The translations under genes were made by a program, and so were the position numbers. This document shows, piece after piece, positions 10,256 to 31,881 of a stretch of DNA of 64,000 bases (the first letter of the stretch is position 1; the number at the start of each line of letters is the position of its first letter). The notes under the pieces are model-generated. The model saw only the letters and a list, made by a program, of their open reading frames with translations. It made no database searches and was not told where the DNA came from. The DNA comes from Bacteriovoracia bacterium. Its GTDB lineage: Bacteria; Bdellovibrionota; UBA1018; JBFWNL01. The stretch spans positions 32,001 through 96,000 of the forward strand of contig JBFWNL010000008.1 of assembly GCA_050251055.1 (NCBI GenBank). The letters run 5' to 3'.

Positions 10256-10339
10256 GCTCGCGTGGTGGAATGGCAGACACGCTGGTCTTAGGAACCAGTG
10301 CCGCAAGGCGTGGGGGTTCGAGTCCCTCCGCGAGCACCA
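10256..10339 (+). tRNA. tRNA-Leu(TAG)
   Basis: GCTCGCG acceptor stem, CTGGT-CTTAGGA-ACCAG anticodon arm, long variable arm, GGTTCGAGTCC and CCA end. Confidence 0.96.
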
Positions 10340-10478
10340 ACCTTAGTTTTGTTTTCAAAAAAAATACTCCGCTCATGGGGGGACGCCCATCCACGGGCTC
10401 GACCCTTCTTTCCCTTCCTGGACCGGGCCCCCCCATGAGCGGAGTATTTTTTTTGAAAACAAAACTAAGATTGGTGCT
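10333..10478. repeat. tRNA-Leu-anchored long inverted repeat (50 bp arms, 46 nt conserved core)
   Basis: 10333-10382 is the reverse complement of 10429-10478 with one mismatch. The left arm starts inside the tRNA 3' end (AGCACCA). Loop 10383-10428 matches the loop at 31755-31800. Confidence 0.93.
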
Positions 10479-10656
10479 GGCTATAATAATGAAACGCGTA
10501 ACGTTTCGTGCCTTGCGGAGGGACTCGAACGGCGGAAGGCGGGTCCCGTTTCTCGACACCTTCCCATGAACTCAGAGTCAATTTCCGACGTCAAACTTCT
10601 GACGATCGATGCTTATCCGAATTGCAGTCACAACCGATAAGCTTTACAGGTCCACC

Positions 10657-11349
10657 ATGTATCACATCTTAGTTGTCGAAGACGGAGCCGACACACGGCT
10701 CCTCCTAAAGAAAGCGCTGAGCGGTATCGCCGCCGAGCTGCACTTCGCCGAAACCTTGGAAGCCGCGCGCGCGGAGCTCACACAGATACGCCCGCATCTG
10801 ATTATCTTGGACATCGAGCTACCCGATGGCGATGGCCTGCAATTCTGCAGCGAACTGCAGGCGCAGGGAGATTTTACCGACGTCGCCTACCTATTTCTTA
10901 CGGGACAAAAGTCCACGCCCCAGAAGGTGGCCGCATTCGCCATGGGCGCCGAGGACTTCATCGAAAAACCCTTCAATCCCGTGGAGCTCAAGGCACGCGT
11001 CGAAGCCCGTCTGCGCAAGCTCGCACAACGTCTGCGTGAGGAGCAAGTGCTCGTTCGCGGCGATCTTACCTTAAACGCCACTTCTCACCGCGCGTTTCTC
11101 AAGGGACCTAAAGGGGAAGAATCCATCGCGCTTACCCCGCGTGAATTCCGCCTGCTGTTTTACCTGGCCCGGCACGAAGACCACGTACTTACCCGTGATC
11201 AGATTTTAAGCGCCGTCTGGGGCGATGCCGCTCAGGTCTTCGACCGTACGGTCGATACCTACATTTCCAATCTGCGCCGAAAACTAAAAACGGCCTCGAG
11301 TTACCTCGAGGCCGTTCCTGGTACAGGATATCGATTCACCACTACCTAG
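10657..11349 (+). CDS. OmpR/PhoB-family response regulator (no adjacent kinase)
   Basis: Receiver domain (ILVVED, LDIELPD, KPF) plus winged helix (LTPREFRLL, RTVDTYISNLRRKL, GTGYRF). Confidence 0.92.
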   Translation: MYHILVVEDGADTRLLLKKALSGIAAELHFAETLEAARAELTQIRPHLIILDIELPDGDGLQFCSELQAQGDFTDVAYLFLTGQKSTPQKVAAFAMGAEDFIEKPFNPVELKARVEARLRKLAQRLREEQVLVRGDLTLNATSHRAFLKGPKGEESIALTPREFRLLFYLARHEDHVLTRDQILSAVWGDAAQVFDRTVDTYISNLRRKLKTASSYLEAVPGTGYRFTTT

Positions 11350-11360
11350 GCAGCATTAGG

Positions 11361-12329
11361 TTAGAAGCGAATCGTGTCGGTCCGTCCGGCCATGCCGTCC
11401 GTTTTGTCTACAACCGTGTAAGTGAGCTGTCGATTCAAGGCGTCCCAGTGCATCTTGCAATACACTACATTGCCCACTTCCGAGATCAGGTTAAACTCGC
11501 TGATATCAACGTTCCAAACCTGGAAGCCCGTGGCGCCGATACCTTGGTCCGCGCTACCGTTCTTCTGGTGGCGGAAGGTCAGCCAGCCGCCGGTCTTTTC
11601 ACCACTCGGGAAGAAAAGGTAGTCGTGGTGACAGGCGCTATAGGCCTTGGCGGGAATCATTTCGCCTACAGCGCCCATGATGAACTTAGCGTTGATGCCG
11701 TTCGTTCCATTCGCACCGTTCACGCCGTTACAAACTACATTCACCGACGACTTCGCGTCGCCGTTAATAATGCTGTAAACCACCCCACCGGCCGGACATT
11801 GCGCCGCGGTTGCCGCCGACATCTTGATCTGCGCACTTTGGCCGTTGACGCCATCCTTGCCATCGCGGCCGTCTTGACCGGCGATGCCGTTGCAGATCAC
11901 CGCCTTCGAAGTGAGGGCTTCGTCCTTGTCTTGCACGCCATCGTTGTTTTTATCGATGAAGGTATAAACCAAGGTTCCGCCGGCCGGGCAGGCGGCCGCG
12001 GGCGCCGCCTGCACCAAAACGCCCGCGCCATAGCCCTGCGCGCCGTCTTTACCGGTTTGCCCGTTGACGCCGTTGCAGATATGCCGGTAGCTGATCACGG
12101 TCTCCGAGTTCTCCCACTTTTGATTCTTATTCGCGTCCAGGAACTGCACGATGGAAACCCCGCCGTTCACGCAGGCCGTCTCACTGGCATCCATCACGTC
12201 CGTCGCCACAGGAACGACTTCGTTCACGATCGCCGGGGTCGCGGTTCCGTCCCGCAGGCTTTCGACGCCGTTGCACCCGGAAACCGCGACCACTCCTCCC
12301 ACAATCATCACCACCGCTAAGTTCCTCAC
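11361..12329 (-). CDS. Lipoprotein with Cys-bounded repeats separated by short collagen-like Gly-X-Y runs
   Basis: Lipobox VSG|C; three C(V/P)(N/A)GG...CNG units, each followed by G-X-Y triplets (GVNGQTGKDGAQG, GIAGQDGRDGKDGVNG, GVNGANGTNG). Confidence 0.75.
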   Translation of the reverse strand: MRNLAVVMIVGGVVAVSGCNGVESLRDGTATPAIVNEVVPVATDVMDASETACVNGGVSIVQFLDANKNQKWENSETVISYRHICNGVNGQTGKDGAQGYGAGVLVQAAPAAACPAGGTLVYTFIDKNNDGVQDKDEALTSKAVICNGIAGQDGRDGKDGVNGQSAQIKMSAATAAQCPAGGVVYSIINGDAKSSVNVVCNGVNGANGTNGINAKFIMGAVGEMIPAKAYSACHHDYLFFPSGEKTGGWLTFRHQKNGSADQGIGATGFQVWNVDISEFNLISEVGNVVYCKMHWDALNRQLTYTVVDKTDGMAGRTDTIRF

Positions 12330-12428
12330 AAAAACCTCCTGTACCTGGCTCTAGTTTCTCAACCCACCATGAACTGGCTGTGGAAAGGGTGTTTAAGAAT
12401 CTTAATGACTTAAATTTATGTTTTTATT

Positions 12429-30285: not shown

Positions 30286-30322
30286 TTTATTTTTTCTCCT
30301 GATTTACTGATTGGAAAATTTT

Positions 30323-30619
30323 TTACTTCTTGGAGGAAATCACGCCCAAGATGTCGTCTTCACGCATCATGAGGAATTCTTCGCCTTCGATCTTGATCTC
30401 GGTACCGGAGTACTTGCCGAACAAGATGCGGTCGCCTTTTTTCACGTCGAGCGGACGGACTTTGCCGTCTTCGGTGACGCGGCCTTGGCCCACGGCGATG
30501 ATTTCGCCTTGCGCCGGCTTTTCCTTAGCGGTGTCCGGGATGATGATCCCGCCCTTGGACTTCTCTTCTTCGCCAAAGCGGCGTACCAGTACGCGATCGT
30601 GTAAAGGTCTCACTTCCAT
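30323..30619 (-). CDS. groS: Co-chaperonin GroES
   Basis: [30 protein letters not shown]. Confidence 0.99.
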
Positions 30620-31001
30620 CTCTCCTCCTTATGACTTGCTCCTGAGCAAATCGGTTATTCTATGCAGCTTGGGGGCGCAAGGCCCGGCCGAACTACGCCT
30701 GTGCTTAAATTGAGGCGCTAAACTAACGGCGAGAGTTCGAAAAATCCACCACGTTTAGCGCTTTTCATGAAGAAAAATGGGCCGTTATTGAACCCTGTCA
30801 AACGCAAGCCCATAATAAATTTGCTAATCTATTTTTATTAATGATTTCAATTGTTTATATAAAATTCAGGAACTAGGGCGGCCTTCCGGGTGAATGTTGA
30901 TTTTGCGCACGAGAGCCAGTTGACTTAAGGCGTTAGCCCGTTTAAACCCGGCAGCTCAACAAGACATCGATTCAACAGCTCTGTTTTTGGGAGAGGGGTT
31001 C

Positions 31002-31529
31002 ATGAAGATGCAGTTTATCGGGGGAAAGGCCGCCATCGGCCTGTTGTCGTTCACCATGGGGATACTGGGGTTTGGCGCCACACAAGCGTGGGCGGGTAAT
31101 GCGGAAGTGTATTCCGCGTACGATAGCGCGCCGGAAGGCGATCTGGTCGCAACCCCTGAAAAACCCGTCATGATGGAAGTGACGTCCGAGGAAGCCGTGG
31201 TGGAAGCGGAACGCGCCGCCGCGAAGAATCAAACTCCCGAACAGGGCTTGCAAGTATTGAAGCACCGCTTGGCCCAGCTGGAGCGTGAAAACCGCACTCT
31301 GCGCAAACAGCTTCAACGGAAGGAAATCGCCAGCACCGGACTCGACGCCGTGGATCTCGCCCAGAAAAAAGGGACGTATGAGCCAGTCGCGTCAGACCAG
31401 ACGCAACGAGTTTTGGCGCGCCTCGATACGGTGAAGCAAATCGTGATGAAGCACGGTCGCGCGTACGATTACCGCGTGCTCTCCGAGCAGGAGCTGAGCC
31501 AGATCCAAGCGCGGCTGAAGGCGAATTAA
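31002..31529 (+). CDS. Secreted hypothetical protein with coiled coil
   Basis: Signal peptide (QAWA|G); SD GAGGGG before ATG at 31002. Confidence 0.65.
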   Translation: MKMQFIGGKAAIGLLSFTMGILGFGATQAWAGNAEVYSAYDSAPEGDLVATPEKPVMMEVTSEEAVVEAERAAAKNQTPEQGLQVLKHRLAQLERENRTLRKQLQRKEIASTGLDAVDLAQKKGTYEPVASDQTQRVLARLDTVKQIVMKHGRAYDYRVLSEQELSQIQARLKAN

Positions 31530-31609
31530 GCTAGCGGTTCACGAGCTTAACGGTTGTAATTTTCGGTGAGATCGCGTACCGATTAGTTCTCTTTCGACAT
31601 TCACACGGC

Positions 31610-31685
31610 GGGTAGGTAGCTCAGTCGGTAGAGCAGCGCCCTGAAAAGGCGCGTGTCGGCGGTTCAATTCCGTCCCTACCCACCA
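31610..31685 (+). tRNA. tRNA-Phe(GAA)
   Basis: GGGTAGG/CCTACCC acceptor stem, GCGCC-CTGAAAA-GGCGC anticodon arm, GGTTCAATTCC and CCA end. Confidence 0.96.
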
Positions 31686-31881
31686 CTCTGTTTTTCCGAT
31701 CAATAAATTCTCCACTTTTCATTCAATCATAAAAAAAGTCAGCACCGGTAGGGGACGCCCATCCATGGGCTTGACCCTTTTTTCCCTTCCTGGGCCGGGA
31801 CACCCCTACCGGTGCTGACTTTTTTTATGATTGAATGAAAAGCTGAGAGATGGCGGCCGGGAAAACGGAGTGGTGGGTAGG
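31675..31881. repeat. tRNA-Phe-anchored long inverted repeat (40 bp perfect inner arms, 48 nt conserved core, outer arm mirroring the tRNA 3' end)
   Basis: 31715-31754 is the perfect reverse complement of 31803-31842. 31675-31698 pairs with 31858-31881, including CCTACCCACCA/TGGTGGGTAGG. The loop matches 10383-10428. Confidence 0.93.

Follow-up and report, generated by a model that had tools for sequence, protein, structure and literature searches.

Mirrored fold-backs behind tRNA genes of a Bacteriovoracia bacterium are part of an undescribed trailer architecture of a bacterial order

The window, i.e., the 64,000-nt stretch of a Bacteriovoracia bacterium contig analysed here (JBFWNL010000008.1, positions 32,001 to 96,000; assembly GCA_050251055.1), harbors a tRNA-Leu and a tRNA-Phe gene, each followed by a long inverted repeat that begins within the tRNA itself (Table 1). 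The arms of fold-back 1, behind tRNA-Leu, are 53 nt long, 96% complementary and 46 nt apart in an inverted-repeat search, with core A as the apical loop; in the right arm, TGGTGCT (10472-10478) is an exact mirror (reverse complement) of the tRNA's final 7 nt. Fold-back 2, behind tRNA-Phe, consists of inner arms of 46 nt (96%, 48 nt apart) and outer arms of 24 nt (92%), the latter mirroring the tRNA 3' end, of which the 11 terminal nt are reproduced exactly. Both inverted repeats had been reported in an earlier reading made from the letters without database searches (the sequence-only reading), as had the lack of the element at tRNA-Arg(tct) (8461-8537, - strand); our analysis agrees on both counts, and an ORF lies directly behind the latter gene.

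Both units extend beyond the right arm. At the tRNA-Leu locus, the reverse copy of the tRNA end is interrupted by module X, whose hairpin was flagged at 10491-10507, and the T-arm has a mirror of its own in a second inverted pair (10316-10334 / 10512-10530, 19 nt, 95%). Next lies a putative collapsed remnant of element B, recognized by eye and unscored by the B model, and the GGTCCC after it resembles the forward T-stem 3' strand. At the tRNA-Phe locus, a candidate X/B-like spacer, assigned by its position and with no match to the B model, precedes a second direct copy of 12 nt, matching exactly, 252 nt downstream of the tRNA. The sequence-only reading had missed this whole right-hand unit, from the reverse T-arm copy through hairpin X and element B to the second direct tRNA-end copy, including the second inverted pair of the tRNA-Leu locus.

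Table 1. Features of the two fold-back loci (positions within the window)
Feature	Position	Strand	Basis
tRNA-Leu(tag)	10256..10339	+	ARAGORN; Rfam tRNA, 56.7 bits
Last 10 nt of tRNA-Leu, outer end of fold-back 1 left arm	10330-10339		inverted repeat
Fold-back 1 left arm: tRNA 3' end, trailer, A-run, GC-rich stem, G-run	10330..10382	+	
Core A (variant A) of fold-back 1: G-run clamp, GCCC-ATCCAC-GGGC hairpin, second hairpin, C-run clamp	10377..10434	+	
Fold-back 1 right arm; T-run immediately after GC-rich stem	10429..10481	+	inverted repeat
Module X, tRNA-Leu locus: TATAAT-like stretch, hairpin GAAACGCG-TAA-CGTTTC, then GTGCCTT	10482..10514	+	sequence; homologous copies elsewhere
Reverse copy of tRNA-Leu T-loop and T-stem 3' strand	10512..10530	+	inverted repeat; 16 nt exact
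Putative collapsed remnant of element B (GGCGGAAGGCG), then GGTCCC	10531..10547	+	read by eye against B alignment
tRNA-Phe(gaa); last 11 nt within outer left arm	31610..31685	+	ARAGORN; Rfam; inverted repeat
Fold-back 2 outer left arm: tRNA 3' end and 13 nt of trailer	31675..31698	+	inverted repeat
Fold-back 2 internal bubble, left side; A/T-rich, unmirrored	31699..31708	+	sequence, fold, homologous bubbles
Fold-back 2 inner left arm with A-run and GC-rich stem	31709..31754	+	inverted repeat
Core A (variant A) of fold-back 2, with G4/C4 clamp	31751..31806	+	
Fold-back 2 inner right arm, then T-run	31803..31848	+	sequence, inverted repeat
Fold-back 2 internal bubble, right side	31849..31857	+	sequence, fold
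Fold-back 2 outer right arm: reverse copy of tRNA-Phe 3' end and trailer	31858..31881	+	
Candidate diverged X/B-like spacer (TATATAAAT...)	31882..31936	+	position only; no B-model match
Partial second direct copy of tRNA-Phe 3' part (ATTCCGTCCCTA: T-loop end and T-stem 3' strand)	31937..31948	+	

Across the genome, the exact reverse complement of a tRNA's own last nucleotides (at least 7 nt) was found within 450 nt downstream of 13 of the 45 tRNAs, compared with 2 of 45 when upstream flanks were searched and a mean of 1.5 (maximum 6) when each tRNA was paired with the flank of another; the mirror is specific to each unit's own tRNA. The arms are locus-specific and reach the acceptor/CCA end, as had been claimed, whereas the accompanying statement that they are not alignable between loci went too far: subsets of loci align at 73-80%, and thus the arms are not wholly unrelated. 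Between the paralogous Asp units, arm-to-arm identity is 48/67, and the arms match their own mirrors at 59/68 and 59/67 positions, bubble counted in. Mirrored arms reaching the CCA were also found without the core, in the same genome at tRNA-Arg-cct, Arg-tcg, Arg-acg and His, and in relatives at 8 of 19 tRNA-linked loci, where a simple short-loop hairpin starts from the CCA and a reverse copy of the CCA end follows (all such plain-loop palindromes of relatives are non-orthologous to core-bearing sites). The arms are thus independent of the core.

The core itself is a discrete 59-nt module in which a G5/C5 clamp encloses two hairpins; the conserved segment of 46 nt described previously is real, but it represents only the inside of this module. 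The homology of the two loops was confirmed (41 of 45 aligned bases identical), both cores share one orientation relative to the tRNA, and a 25-nt degenerate core pattern occurs at exactly 2 places in the window and in none of 100 shuffles. In the genome, 27 copies of consistent anatomy were catalogued on 10 contigs, neighboring 16 intact tRNAs, 3 tRNA fragments and 8 protein-gene ends. A 17-mer of the core lies 36-71 nt downstream of 14 of the 45 tRNAs, with diverged copies at 2 more, which sustains the proposed recurrent system with a strong tRNA link, though not an exclusive one, as the 8 copies behind protein-coding ORFs indicate. The distribution across the phylum is patchy: 22 of 401 genomes match, several copies are present only in G000 (20), G126 (18) and G301 (4), and one separate MAG contains 10 matches.

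That the fold-backs were created during assembly or amplification is extremely unlikely. Short-word contigs do break at the palindrome, and one contig of run X1 turns back at 10383/10429; however, a second sample (X2) yielded a 106-nt contig that runs through the core and both inner arms (10353-10458) with 0 differences, units of this design are found again on many contigs and in independent genomes, and covariation cannot come from an artefact.

The sequence-only reading had proposed that a short non-autonomous core makes an inverted duplication of its target upon insertion or repair, with the enzyme supplied in trans. Consistent with this proposal, four near-identical 59-nt GGGGG...CCCCC cores (behind tRNA-Val-gac and at C13:21076, C7:136537 and C2:173651), differing at 2 loop columns only, are embedded in flanks that are unrelated right up to the clamp, yet every flank pair is palindromic. 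In addition, a whole-genome census at a minimum arm length of 22 nt recovered 45 inverted repeats; among the longest, nearly every one has core A, C or D in its loop or forms the outer arms of such a unit, and about 7 are "empty". The patchy, multi-copy scatter of the core among genomes points the same way. However, the proposal is contradicted by the tRNA-end mirrors that lack a core, both here and in relatives, and a single insertion cannot yield the conserved bubbles, X and B that lie within the supposedly copied sequence. Moreover, the genome, which is 93.5% complete, yielded no Y1/RAYT, RT, TnpB or IS110 gene. We regard this origin as quite improbable.

REP, BIME and REPIN sequences are RAYT-mobilised extragenic palindromes located at gene 3' ends, multi-copy and patchy, and capable of acting as terminators or mRNA ends. 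The core units are likewise multi-copy, patchy extragenic palindromes at gene 3' ends, and both are IS targets, an IS110-like gene being inserted within a core copy of another genome. In REP and REPIN, conservation lies in the arms and variation in the loop; the core units show the opposite, with a conserved loop and variable arms, and neither a Y1_Tnp (RAYT) gene nor a GTAG/CGTC-type tag was seen here. As the sequence-only reading had implied, no Rfam, REP or IS-end family was matched to the elements. The TwoAYGGAY motif (Rfam RF01731) resembles them in being multi-copy and intergenic, with two successive hairpins on a long basal stem, and the first core hairpin reads GCCC-AUGGAU-GGGC, an AYGGAY loop, on the opposite strand. 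However, only 1 place in the genome scores (28.5 bits against a cut-off of 43, E 0.04), the AYGGAY reading is antisense to the upstream gene, and most core copies have a second loop other than AYGGAY. According to the available part of a report on Pseudomonas, genomes differ widely in TwoAYGGAY copy number, and the motif is linked to REP arrays; that part makes no mention of an association with tRNAs or of arms that mirror them (bioRxiv 10.64898/2026.09.22.753630).

The fold-backs belong to an undescribed, order-wide architecture by which the ends of tRNA genes are marked. In the trailers of tRNA and tmRNA genes, the tRNA end (counted from the T-loop) is followed by a hairpin, a reverse copy of that end interrupted by X, element B (91-114 nt, with a conserved three-way junction) and a second direct copy, i.e., forward, reverse, forward, with turn-arounds at a terminator-like hairpin and in the T-loop. 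Element B was found in 21 of 101 genomes of the same order, with 1-8 copies each. Of the 19 tRNA-linked B loci of relatives, 16 have a reverse T-arm copy (at least 8 nt), 13 a reverse CCA-end copy (at least 6 nt) and 14 a second direct copy (at least 18 nt). In B, 93.8% of cells are paired, a percentage inflated by fitting the A3 alignment to the structure of the model, and 28 of 33 pairs have changed on both sides.

The direct repeats raise the possibility of a miniature gene-less integrative element, a tiny passenger comprising hairpin, reverse copy, X and B, integrated at the tRNA 3' end and bounded by direct repeats of that end. A folded single strand, with reverse and direct copies paired and B as a cap, would serve as the attachment site for a tyrosine recombinase acting in trans. 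Direct repeats of 18-21 nt, from T-loop to CCA, surround the unit in the 14 loci of relatives mentioned above, and repeats flank it in this genome at tRNA-Gln-ttg, Arg-acg and Pro-ggg; after the second repeat, divergence from the first trailer often sets in within 0-11 nt, like attachment-site borders. The exploitation of tmRNA-like as well as tRNA ends also fits, as do the 8 tyrosine recombinase genes of the genome and arrays in G024 and G031, where two near-identical complete modules flank islets, one with a truncated Phage_integrase ORF; the distal tRNA fragment of the islet starts at the T-loop boundary GAATC, the same as the direct copy after B. Integron attC and CTX phage attP sites are imperfect long hairpins with conserved bulges, conserved in structure more than in sequence, and form arrays by a fixed anchor site; the X bulge, the strict Watson-Crick stems and the unit arrays beside an anchor site recall them. 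In attC, however, a variable centre lies between conserved ends, and no integron integrase was seen. The units similarly resemble attL/attR of tyrosine-integrase islands and their decayed gene-less derivatives (cis-mobilisable elements) in the T-loop-to-CCA direct repeat, the use of tRNA and tmRNA genes and the tandem arrays with an integrase-bearing islet, but they are gene-less, only about 150-250 nt long, and hold an inverted copy of the tRNA end together with two covarying hairpin modules. In addition, the units match their own tRNAs in both orientations without exception, and at least 15 tRNA species are involved; a site-specific element would need re-templating at each new site. The second repeats of this genome are mostly 6-12 nt, and the B copies, about 80% identical with many compensatory changes, appear old rather than recently moved; no excised form, dedicated unit-linked recombinase or cargo between X and B was seen. 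Such an integrative element is improbable, if somewhat less so than a self-duplicating core.

Pairing and orientation bear on whether the units act as RNA. The core may act, perhaps with X and B, in the transcript of the upstream gene, either as the elaborated tip of a bidirectional intrinsic terminator or as a stable 3'-trailer RNA released from the tRNA precursor, with the long arms a mere stem and DNA-level copying only the way in which stems arose. Functional tRNA 3'-trailer RNAs are known in E. coli. Core orientation follows the tRNA, tRNA fragment or ORF ending just upstream in 27 of 27 copies and is unrelated to replication direction (15 vs 12 by GC skew); a purely DNA-level palindrome should ignore transcription direction, and this orientation thus favours an RNA-level role or a transcription-coupled process. 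The core structure is 94.2% paired (82.9% in shuffles), with 8 of 16 pairs changed on both sides, and its hairpins and clamp covary with a score of 0.280, a value reached by 0 of 500 shuffles (0.101 in shuffles). These results fit the other option of the sequence-only reading, a conserved module on tRNA trailers. Shuffled sequences fall far short of the predicted fold stability of the two fold-backs (z -12.5 and -12.4), core wobbles lean slightly to the sense strand (G.U 8 vs A.C 4), and an A-run before and a T-run after the GC-rich inner stem were read from the printed sequences in about 17 of 26 copies. On the other hand, wobble pairs are rare and strand-unbiased in B (G.U 17 and A.C 19 of 1149 cells) and in the arms of core units (G.T 34 vs A.C 43), which points to DNA-level mirror copying, i.e., template switching, rather than classical RNA selection. 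Furthermore, the outer arms and the anti-tRNA segment lie past the T-run and would be absent from a terminated transcript, a read-through fold would disrupt the tRNA itself, and the core is patchy in the phylum and matches no Rfam family. Action primarily as an RNA module is a rather unlikely, though serious, alternative.

The best explanation, in which we place somewhat less than even confidence, is a two-layer composite palindromic family whose arms were copied at the DNA level and whose core entered the hairpin tips secondarily. The layers would differ in age: the arms would represent the order-wide trailer architecture of tRNA and tmRNA genes, and the 59-nt core a later occupant of tRNA-hairpin tips and of similar hairpins behind protein genes. 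Template switching is described as creating, perfecting and expanding hairpin arms in the accessible parts of published work (PMC8794818, PMC13100816, PMC7202029). Intrastrand fold-back copying of this type may have made the arms and kept them complementary; with the tRNA side fixed by selection, the opposite arm would be repeatedly rewritten as its mirror, which would account for the match between each unit and the tRNA it follows. The closer agreement of the Asp arms with their own mirrors than with each other fits maintenance at the DNA level. The core would spread into hairpin tips as one unit, a mobility suggested by sequence patterns only; the four near-identical cores in unrelated palindromic flanks, the core-bearing long palindromes and the patchy distribution among genomes speak for this explanation as well, while neither a polymorphism of filled and empty sites nor an excised form or an enzyme was observed. 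The units would lie at points of tyrosine-integrase traffic at tRNA ends and be duplicated by it, in keeping with the islets of G024 and G031.

Known template-switch products (quasipalindrome correction, tandem inversion duplications and ODIRA triplications) share the forward-reverse-forward layout with junctions at natural hairpins, arms that are perfected and extended, and compensatory changes without wobble intermediates, as far as the available parts of the sources go (PMC11790251, PMC8794818, PMC13100816). However, those products are sporadic and occur at any locus, whereas the units described here are systematic at tRNA ends across the order and carry the core, X and B at fixed positions. 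X and B are homologous and occupy the same relative positions within locus-specific mirrored sequence, and their spread to so many tRNAs is unexplained by template switching alone. Simple triplication of the T-arm predicts a junction of reverse T-loop and T-stem 3' strand, but the observed junction contains B and 4 extra forward T-loop bases, so that the template-switch model needs an extra step. Although the A-run/T-run layout is not universal, being reversed in about 5 copies, the inner stem between the two runs is, judging from its sequence, probably also a bidirectional terminator in most copies.

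The long inverted repeats with homologous loops that the sequence-only reading had placed behind tRNA-Leu and tRNA-Phe were borne out by an inverted-repeat search and an alignment of the loops, in which 41 of 45 aligned bases were identical. ARAGORN called three tRNAs in the window, and the third, tRNA-Arg(tct), does lack the element, as had been noted: in the window sequence the tRNA runs straight into an ORF that directly adjoins it. A 25-nt degenerate pattern of the loop module (core A, a 59-nt two-hairpin module with a G5/C5 clamp at the tip of the fold-back) was found at two places in the window, namely these two loci, and at none in 100 shuffles. 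The ORFs flanking both loci encode a Glug-repeat protein, a response regulator and GroEL, along with unassigned ORFs; no integrase gene adjoins either locus among them, and a sigma-70 promoter scan gave 0 sites at both.

Positions of the tRNA genes and of the inverted repeats behind them in the window
Feature	Position	Strand	Source or properties
tRNA-Arg(tct)	8461-8537	-	ARAGORN
tRNA-Leu(tag)	10256-10339	+	ARAGORN
tRNA-Leu inverted repeat	10330-10382 / 10429-10481		53-nt arms, 96% complementary, 46 nt enclosed
tRNA-Leu T-arm mirror	10316-10334 / 10512-10530		19 nt, 95%
tRNA-Phe(gaa)	31610-31685	+	ARAGORN
tRNA-Phe inner arms	31709-31754 / 31803-31848		46 nt, 96%, 48 nt enclosed
tRNA-Phe outer arms, mirroring the tRNA 3' end	31675-31698 / 31858-31881		24 nt, 92%

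The region is present in contigs from two DNA runs of one landfill-metagenome study. The short-word contigs of those runs end at the tRNA and at the palindrome, and a 106-nt contig from the second sample covers 10353-10458 with 0 differences. A search for orthologues of the tRNA-Leu locus through the neighbouring response regulator returned 30 metagenome loci, all at 38% identity or less and none usable.

The source genome (G000; 3.77 Mb in 21 contigs, 93.5% complete) contains 19 matches to the 17-mer search word of core A with at most 2 mismatches, and with at most 3 mismatches the 17-mer lies 36-71 nt downstream of 14 of the 45 tRNAs. Diverged copies were found at two further tRNAs (Leu-gag and Ser-gga), shortened cores at tRNA-Leu-cag and tRNA-Lys-ttt, and a BLAST of all tRNA trailers turned up copies away from tRNAs. 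The resulting catalogue holds 27 copies: 16 behind intact tRNAs, 3 behind 3' fragments of tRNAs or a second copy of the tRNA end, and 8 behind ORFs (stop-to-stop, at least 100 codons), the ORF being on the same strand and its end anywhere from overlapping by 2 nt to 163 nt before the copy. Several of the ORF-linked copies sit between convergent ORFs. As the 75-nt windows behind the 45 tRNAs amount, by arithmetic, to about 0.05% of both strands and hold 16 of the 27 copies, we infer that the association of the core with tRNAs in this genome is very strong.

In an alignment of 22 full-length copies (A2), the conserved core extends from the G-run to the C-run and comprises the hairpin GC(C/G)C-(A/T)TCCAT-G(G/C)GC and a second stem with a small hairpin inside it. 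This four-helix structure pairs 94.2% of the cells, compared with 82.9% in shuffled alignments (0 of 500 shuffles as high), with two-sided changes at 8 of 16 pairs and a covariation score of 0.280 (shuffles: 0.101); when the partners are slid, pairing falls to 35-64%. Four copies have identical 59-nt cores but for two loop columns, and the similarity of these copies stops at the clamp, their flanks being unrelated. With a minimum arm length of 22 nt, a census of G000 yielded 45 inverted repeats. Almost all of the longest carry core A, C or D (C and D being related loop modules, at the tRNA-Asp and tRNA-Pro units) or represent the outer arms of such units; about seven repeats have plain loops. 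At tRNA-Asp (G000 contig C3, 90900-92650), two complete core C units lie 1.1 kb apart, and between them is a small ORF whose start resembles a signal peptide. The tRNA-Pro genes (contig C6, 135510-136900, and contig C2, 456209) carry core D, a third loop family. The reverse copy is degenerate there, the tRNA end recurs directly over 20 nt some 250 nt downstream, and 1.2 kb away lies a partial third unit.

The mirroring of the tRNA by the arms proved to be wider than the core. An exact reverse complement of the tRNA's own last 7 or more nucleotides occurs within 450 nt downstream of 13 of the 45 tRNAs; the same count was 2 of 45 in upstream flanks, and averaged 1.5 (maximum 6) when tRNAs were paired with the flanks of other tRNAs. 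By local self-alignment, the palindrome begins 5-25 nt inside the tRNA at about 20 tRNAs. Insertion of the core had been put forward as one possible source of the inverted copy, a proposal that the mirrors existing without it do not support: tRNA-Arg-cct has 40-nt arms reaching up to CACCA around an 8-nt loop, tRNA-Arg-tcg a 13-bp hairpin including GTGCGCCA, and tRNA-Arg-acg and tRNA-His mirrors with other interiors. Nor are the arms wholly unalignable, as the same reading had it for the two window loci; subsets of them align between loci at 73-80%, and the trailers are therefore related. Within the Asp units, each arm nevertheless matches its own unit better than the paralogous one: the arms of the two units agree with each other at 48 of 67 positions and with the other unit's mirror at 43-45 of 67, compared with 59/68 and 59/67 for each arm and its own mirror, bubble counted. 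On reading, the long-form units have a common non-mirrored bubble, A-rich on the left and with a small palindrome of the type CGAGAAGTTCTCGG on the right. At tRNA-Cys (G000 contig C1, 239437), the T-arm is copied in reverse over 11 nt at +66 and the tRNA end directly over 19 nt at +135, and signatures of core A or of the element B described below are absent from this locus.

At many tRNA loci, the fold-back is the left part of a larger unit. To its right follow, in order, the reverse CCA/acceptor end, a hairpin (X) that splits the reverse copy, the reverse T-stem and T-loop, a three-way-junction element (B) and forward bases of the T-loop and T-stem. X consists of an A/T-rich, TATAAT-like stretch, which was considered as a possible promoter, then GAAACGCG-loop-CGTTTCG, then a GTACCTTA-like sequence; the reverse T-arm segment is the reverse complement of the 3' strand of the T-stem and of the whole T-loop; and B is GC-rich. 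All eight clear B copies in G000 lie 3' of tRNAs on the tRNA strand, and RNAalifold placed 33 pairs in them, 16 with compensatory changes. Direct copies of 19-21 nt were found at four G000 tRNAs (Cys, Pro-ggg, Arg-acg and Gln-ttg), and at the last three the copy of the tRNA end is full (20-21 nt) and is followed by a further unit. Both window loci are reduced forms: tRNA-Leu retains X, the 19-nt reverse T-arm copy, what reads as a collapsed B and a second direct copy of only about 6 nt, and at tRNA-Phe the spacer has diverged and the direct copy spans 12 nt (31937-31948). We considered a tRNA-like RNA running from the reverse acceptor to the forward CCA and rejected it, as the reverse segment pairs with the CCA end and most G000 copies have no forward acceptor. 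Behind a cluster of tRNA-Thr, Tyr, Gly and Thr (G000 contig C8, 110489-110926), the downstream sequence is 100% identical over 287 nt to contig C3, 295274-295560; this is probably a duplicated gene adjoining the cluster.

With a covariance model of B (R1), the element was detected in 21 of 101 genomes of the same order, at 1-8 copies each, and in 7 of 11 families, the family of G000 itself excluded. Among 26 inspected loci in relatives, 19 have an intact tRNA upstream on the same strand, at a distance of 51-211 nt; of the other seven, at least four lie behind tRNA 3' fragments and one behind a tmRNA-like 3' end. The 19 tRNA-linked loci also contain the rest of the unit to a large extent, with a reverse T-arm copy of at least 8 nt in 16, a reverse CCA-end copy of at least 6 nt in 13 and a second direct copy of at least 18 nt in 14. 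By inspection, eight of the 19 have a plain short-loop hairpin before the reverse copy, its stem starting from the CCA, and four have ATCC-loop hairpins resembling the core. In one further genome of the order (G034), weaker versions were seen at a few of 31 tRNAs examined. In an alignment of 35 B copies (A3), which was fitted to the model, 93.8% of the paired cells were complementary, compared with 70.9% after shuffling; two-sided changes occurred at 28 of 33 pairs, and the covariation score was 0.577, compared with 0.164 in shuffles, none of the 500 reaching the observed value. The arms that mirror the tRNA form part of an order-wide unit that is older and contains the strongly covarying B; the core is a secondary tenant of the hairpin tips. 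The module behind the tmRNA-like 3' end (GGGGGTTCAACTCCCCCCGGGTCCACCA; locus L170 on contig C12 of genome G024), where ARAGORN in tRNA mode made no call, suggests that tmRNA genes seem to carry the same architecture.

The distribution of the core is of another kind. A core match with at most 1 mismatch was found in 22 of 401 sampled genomes of the phylum, and several matches only in G000 (20), G126 (18) and G301 (4); none of the matches inspected in G126, G301 and a further genome, G335, adjoins a tRNA. The core is therefore patchy, expanded in a few lineages and, outside this order, not specific to tRNAs. In a collection with one genome per species, a 21-nt pattern (clamp and first hairpin) picked out six stretches. 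Three come from a single MAG labelled Bdellovibrionaceae, with 10 copies in total. Five of the six have the pattern at the loop of hairpins that are specific to their locus and follow protein genes, with a different second half of the loop; the sixth, from a MAG labelled Actinomycetota, lacks a palindrome around the pattern and probably matches by chance. The GroEL of G000 is 81-85% identical to that of two genomes of its order and 72-73% identical to that of MAGs labelled Bdellovibrionaceae, Bdellovibrionales and delta proteobacterium, which carry the core. At about 2720-3100 of one locus from a MAG labelled Bdellovibrionaceae (L024), the core is truncated, and about 130 nt further on there is an ORF whose N-terminus appears IS110-like by eye; the core may serve as a target for IS110-like insertion sequences. 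In G126, from a distant family of the phylum, contig C1 (1-1533; L095) contains a tandem array of units of about 130 nt, each with the 17-mer hairpin, so that the motif is arranged differently there.

The ends of tRNA genes are the main docking sites for genomic islands, phages and integrative elements. Islets of about 3 kb in two relatives (G024 and G031) are flanked by a pair of complete modules that are almost identical. In one islet, a truncated Phage_integrase ORF is accompanied by a BrnA-type antitoxin and a DUF6973 protein; the second islet encodes LysR, DUF3892 and DUF4431 proteins. The distal tRNA fragment of the first islet starts at the GAATC T-loop boundary, as does the direct copy after B, and at the Asp and Pro loci of G000 a short fragment of a tRNA end precedes a second unit at a distance of about 1.1-1.2 kb. 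On these grounds, the units occupy the zone used by tyrosine integrases and are duplicated with islands. In another relative (G006), a B module behind a tRNA 3' fragment has an RVT_1 ORF (L159, 550-1398 on the minus strand; E 2e-23) ending at a distance of about 100 nt; the ORF probably belongs to an islet.

No ORF lies inside any unit; integrase remnants were found instead in the neighbouring islets. A co-occurring HUH/RAYT or reverse-transcriptase gene had been named among the things to look for, and the 93.5%-complete G000 did not supply one: Y1_Tnp (PF01797) gave 0 matches, the control search being positive in 6 of 14 genomes, and RVT_1, TnpB-type and IS110 searches gave none either. Phage_integrase had eight matches. 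For a guide RNA, with B as scaffold and the tRNA end as guide, G000 offered no partner among TnpB/Cas12f-like and IS110 genes. A retron was rejected in view of the missing RVT_1 gene, a reverse transcriptase adjoining B at only one relative's locus. A mini-element built on a folded attachment site is a live alternative. In its full form, the units would be mobile DNA of a new, gene-less class whose folded single-strand attachment site imitates the duplex tRNA 3' end, re-templated at each tRNA by fold-back copying and forming cassette-like arrays and landing pads for islands, with the core as an independent element that seeks hairpin tips; we regard this as rather unlikely.

The main rival to mirror copying at the DNA level is an RNA function of the units, which is likewise a live alternative. 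The core points in the direction of the upstream gene in 27 of 27 copies, and by local GC skew it lies on the G-rich strand in 15 and on the C-rich strand in 12; its orientation thus tracks transcription strictly and replication not, which counts against a purely DNA-level account. A bidirectional-terminator layout (A-run, GC-stem, T-run) is likewise seen in about 17 of 26 copies, with about five reversed. A simple terminator scan is blind to the core units because it allows loops of only 3-8 nt. The predicted folds of both regions reach z-scores of -12.5 and -12.4, and the modelled fold of a read-through transcript would swallow the T-arm and acceptor strands of the tRNA. In structured RNAs, G.U pairs are normally tolerated on the functional strand. 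Against an RNA function, wobble pairs are scarce and strand-symmetric: B has 17 G.U and 19 A.C among 1149 cells, the arms of the core units have 34 G.T versus 43 A.C, and the core has 8 G.U versus 4 A.C. Strict, strand-neutral Watson-Crick pairing combined with many double changes is the outcome expected when one side is copied from the other. Template switching creates, perfects and expands hairpin arms, according to three reports (PMC8794818, PMC13100816, PMC7202029). The forward-reverse-forward order, with turn-arounds at the terminator and T-arm hairpins, fits such mechanisms; its right junction is a hairpin, and on reading the T-loop junction holds B and 4 extra bases, not a plain reversed T-loop. 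The best-supported reading is that one arm would be copied from the other at the DNA level, in a region of integrase activity where the units may also serve as terminators. The transcription-bound orientation and the wobble-poor, strand-neutral pairing pull apart, and it is this conflict that sets up the main rival.

Several known systems share part of this design. A gathering search of the window with Rfam returned only the tRNAs and a fluoride riboswitch, and E-value searches of the first locus and eight further loci gave weak matches of the microRNA-precursor type, which are driven by the long stems, and one sub-threshold match to TwoAYGGAY (RF01731). Across the whole of G000, TwoAYGGAY had 1 match (28.5 bits, E 0.04, below the 43-bit gathering cut-off), and neither window locus was listed at E up to 10. 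This family, described in a preprint as multi-copy, REP-linked and of unknown function (bioRxiv 10.64898/2026.09.22.753630), is nearest in topology, with two hairpins on a basal stem that is supported in the core; one core loop reads AUGGAU/AUGGAA on the opposite strand, whereas the other is A(C/G)GA(N) in most copies. Binding of CsrA to the GGA loops of the opposite strand was considered as a further, speculative reading. REP and REPIN elements have conserved arms and a variable loop, whereas here the loop is conserved and the arms differ by locus. Similarly, MITEs combine conserved terminal inverted repeats with a variable centre, whereas the present units have a conserved centre and ends that are locus-specific except for the G5/C5 clamp, where no short direct target duplication of the MITE type was seen on reading. 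The attC sites, with conserved ends and a variable centre, are the reverse of this design and are likened to it by analogy only. The direct tRNA-end repeats from T-loop to CCA, typical of integrase attL/attR, are present, but a cognate integrase inside the segment is not; integrase-made attachment repeats account for the direct copies and not for the inverted ones. The forward-reverse-forward order of ODIRA and tandem inversion duplications is also present, but template-switch products account for the mirror and not for the conserved modules. We found no description of tRNA-end-mirroring units or of B in the main texts of the open-access literature searched; a short palindrome behind Methanopyrus tRNA genes, mentioned in one paper (PMC5217627), is unrelated.

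The architecture at these tRNA ends is real, systematic and undescribed. The DNA just behind tRNA genes is usually taken for a plain terminator; across a whole order, it holds here a structured, covarying and unannotated element B together with mirrors of the tRNA end; in one lineage, another small structured module has been added at the tips of the hairpins. If template switching maintains the mirror, the units would offer an unusually clean natural case of long hairpins being built and policed with the tRNA as fixed template; if they are mobile or act as landing pads, the reading of tRNA-site integration and island accretion would change. Either way, B, X and the core could represent new RNA or DNA motif families, and they explain assembly breaks behind these tRNA genes. 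The fluoride riboswitch in the window (crcB motif, 61574-61635 on the plus strand; 57 bits against a cut-off of 34) has no relation to the fold-backs.
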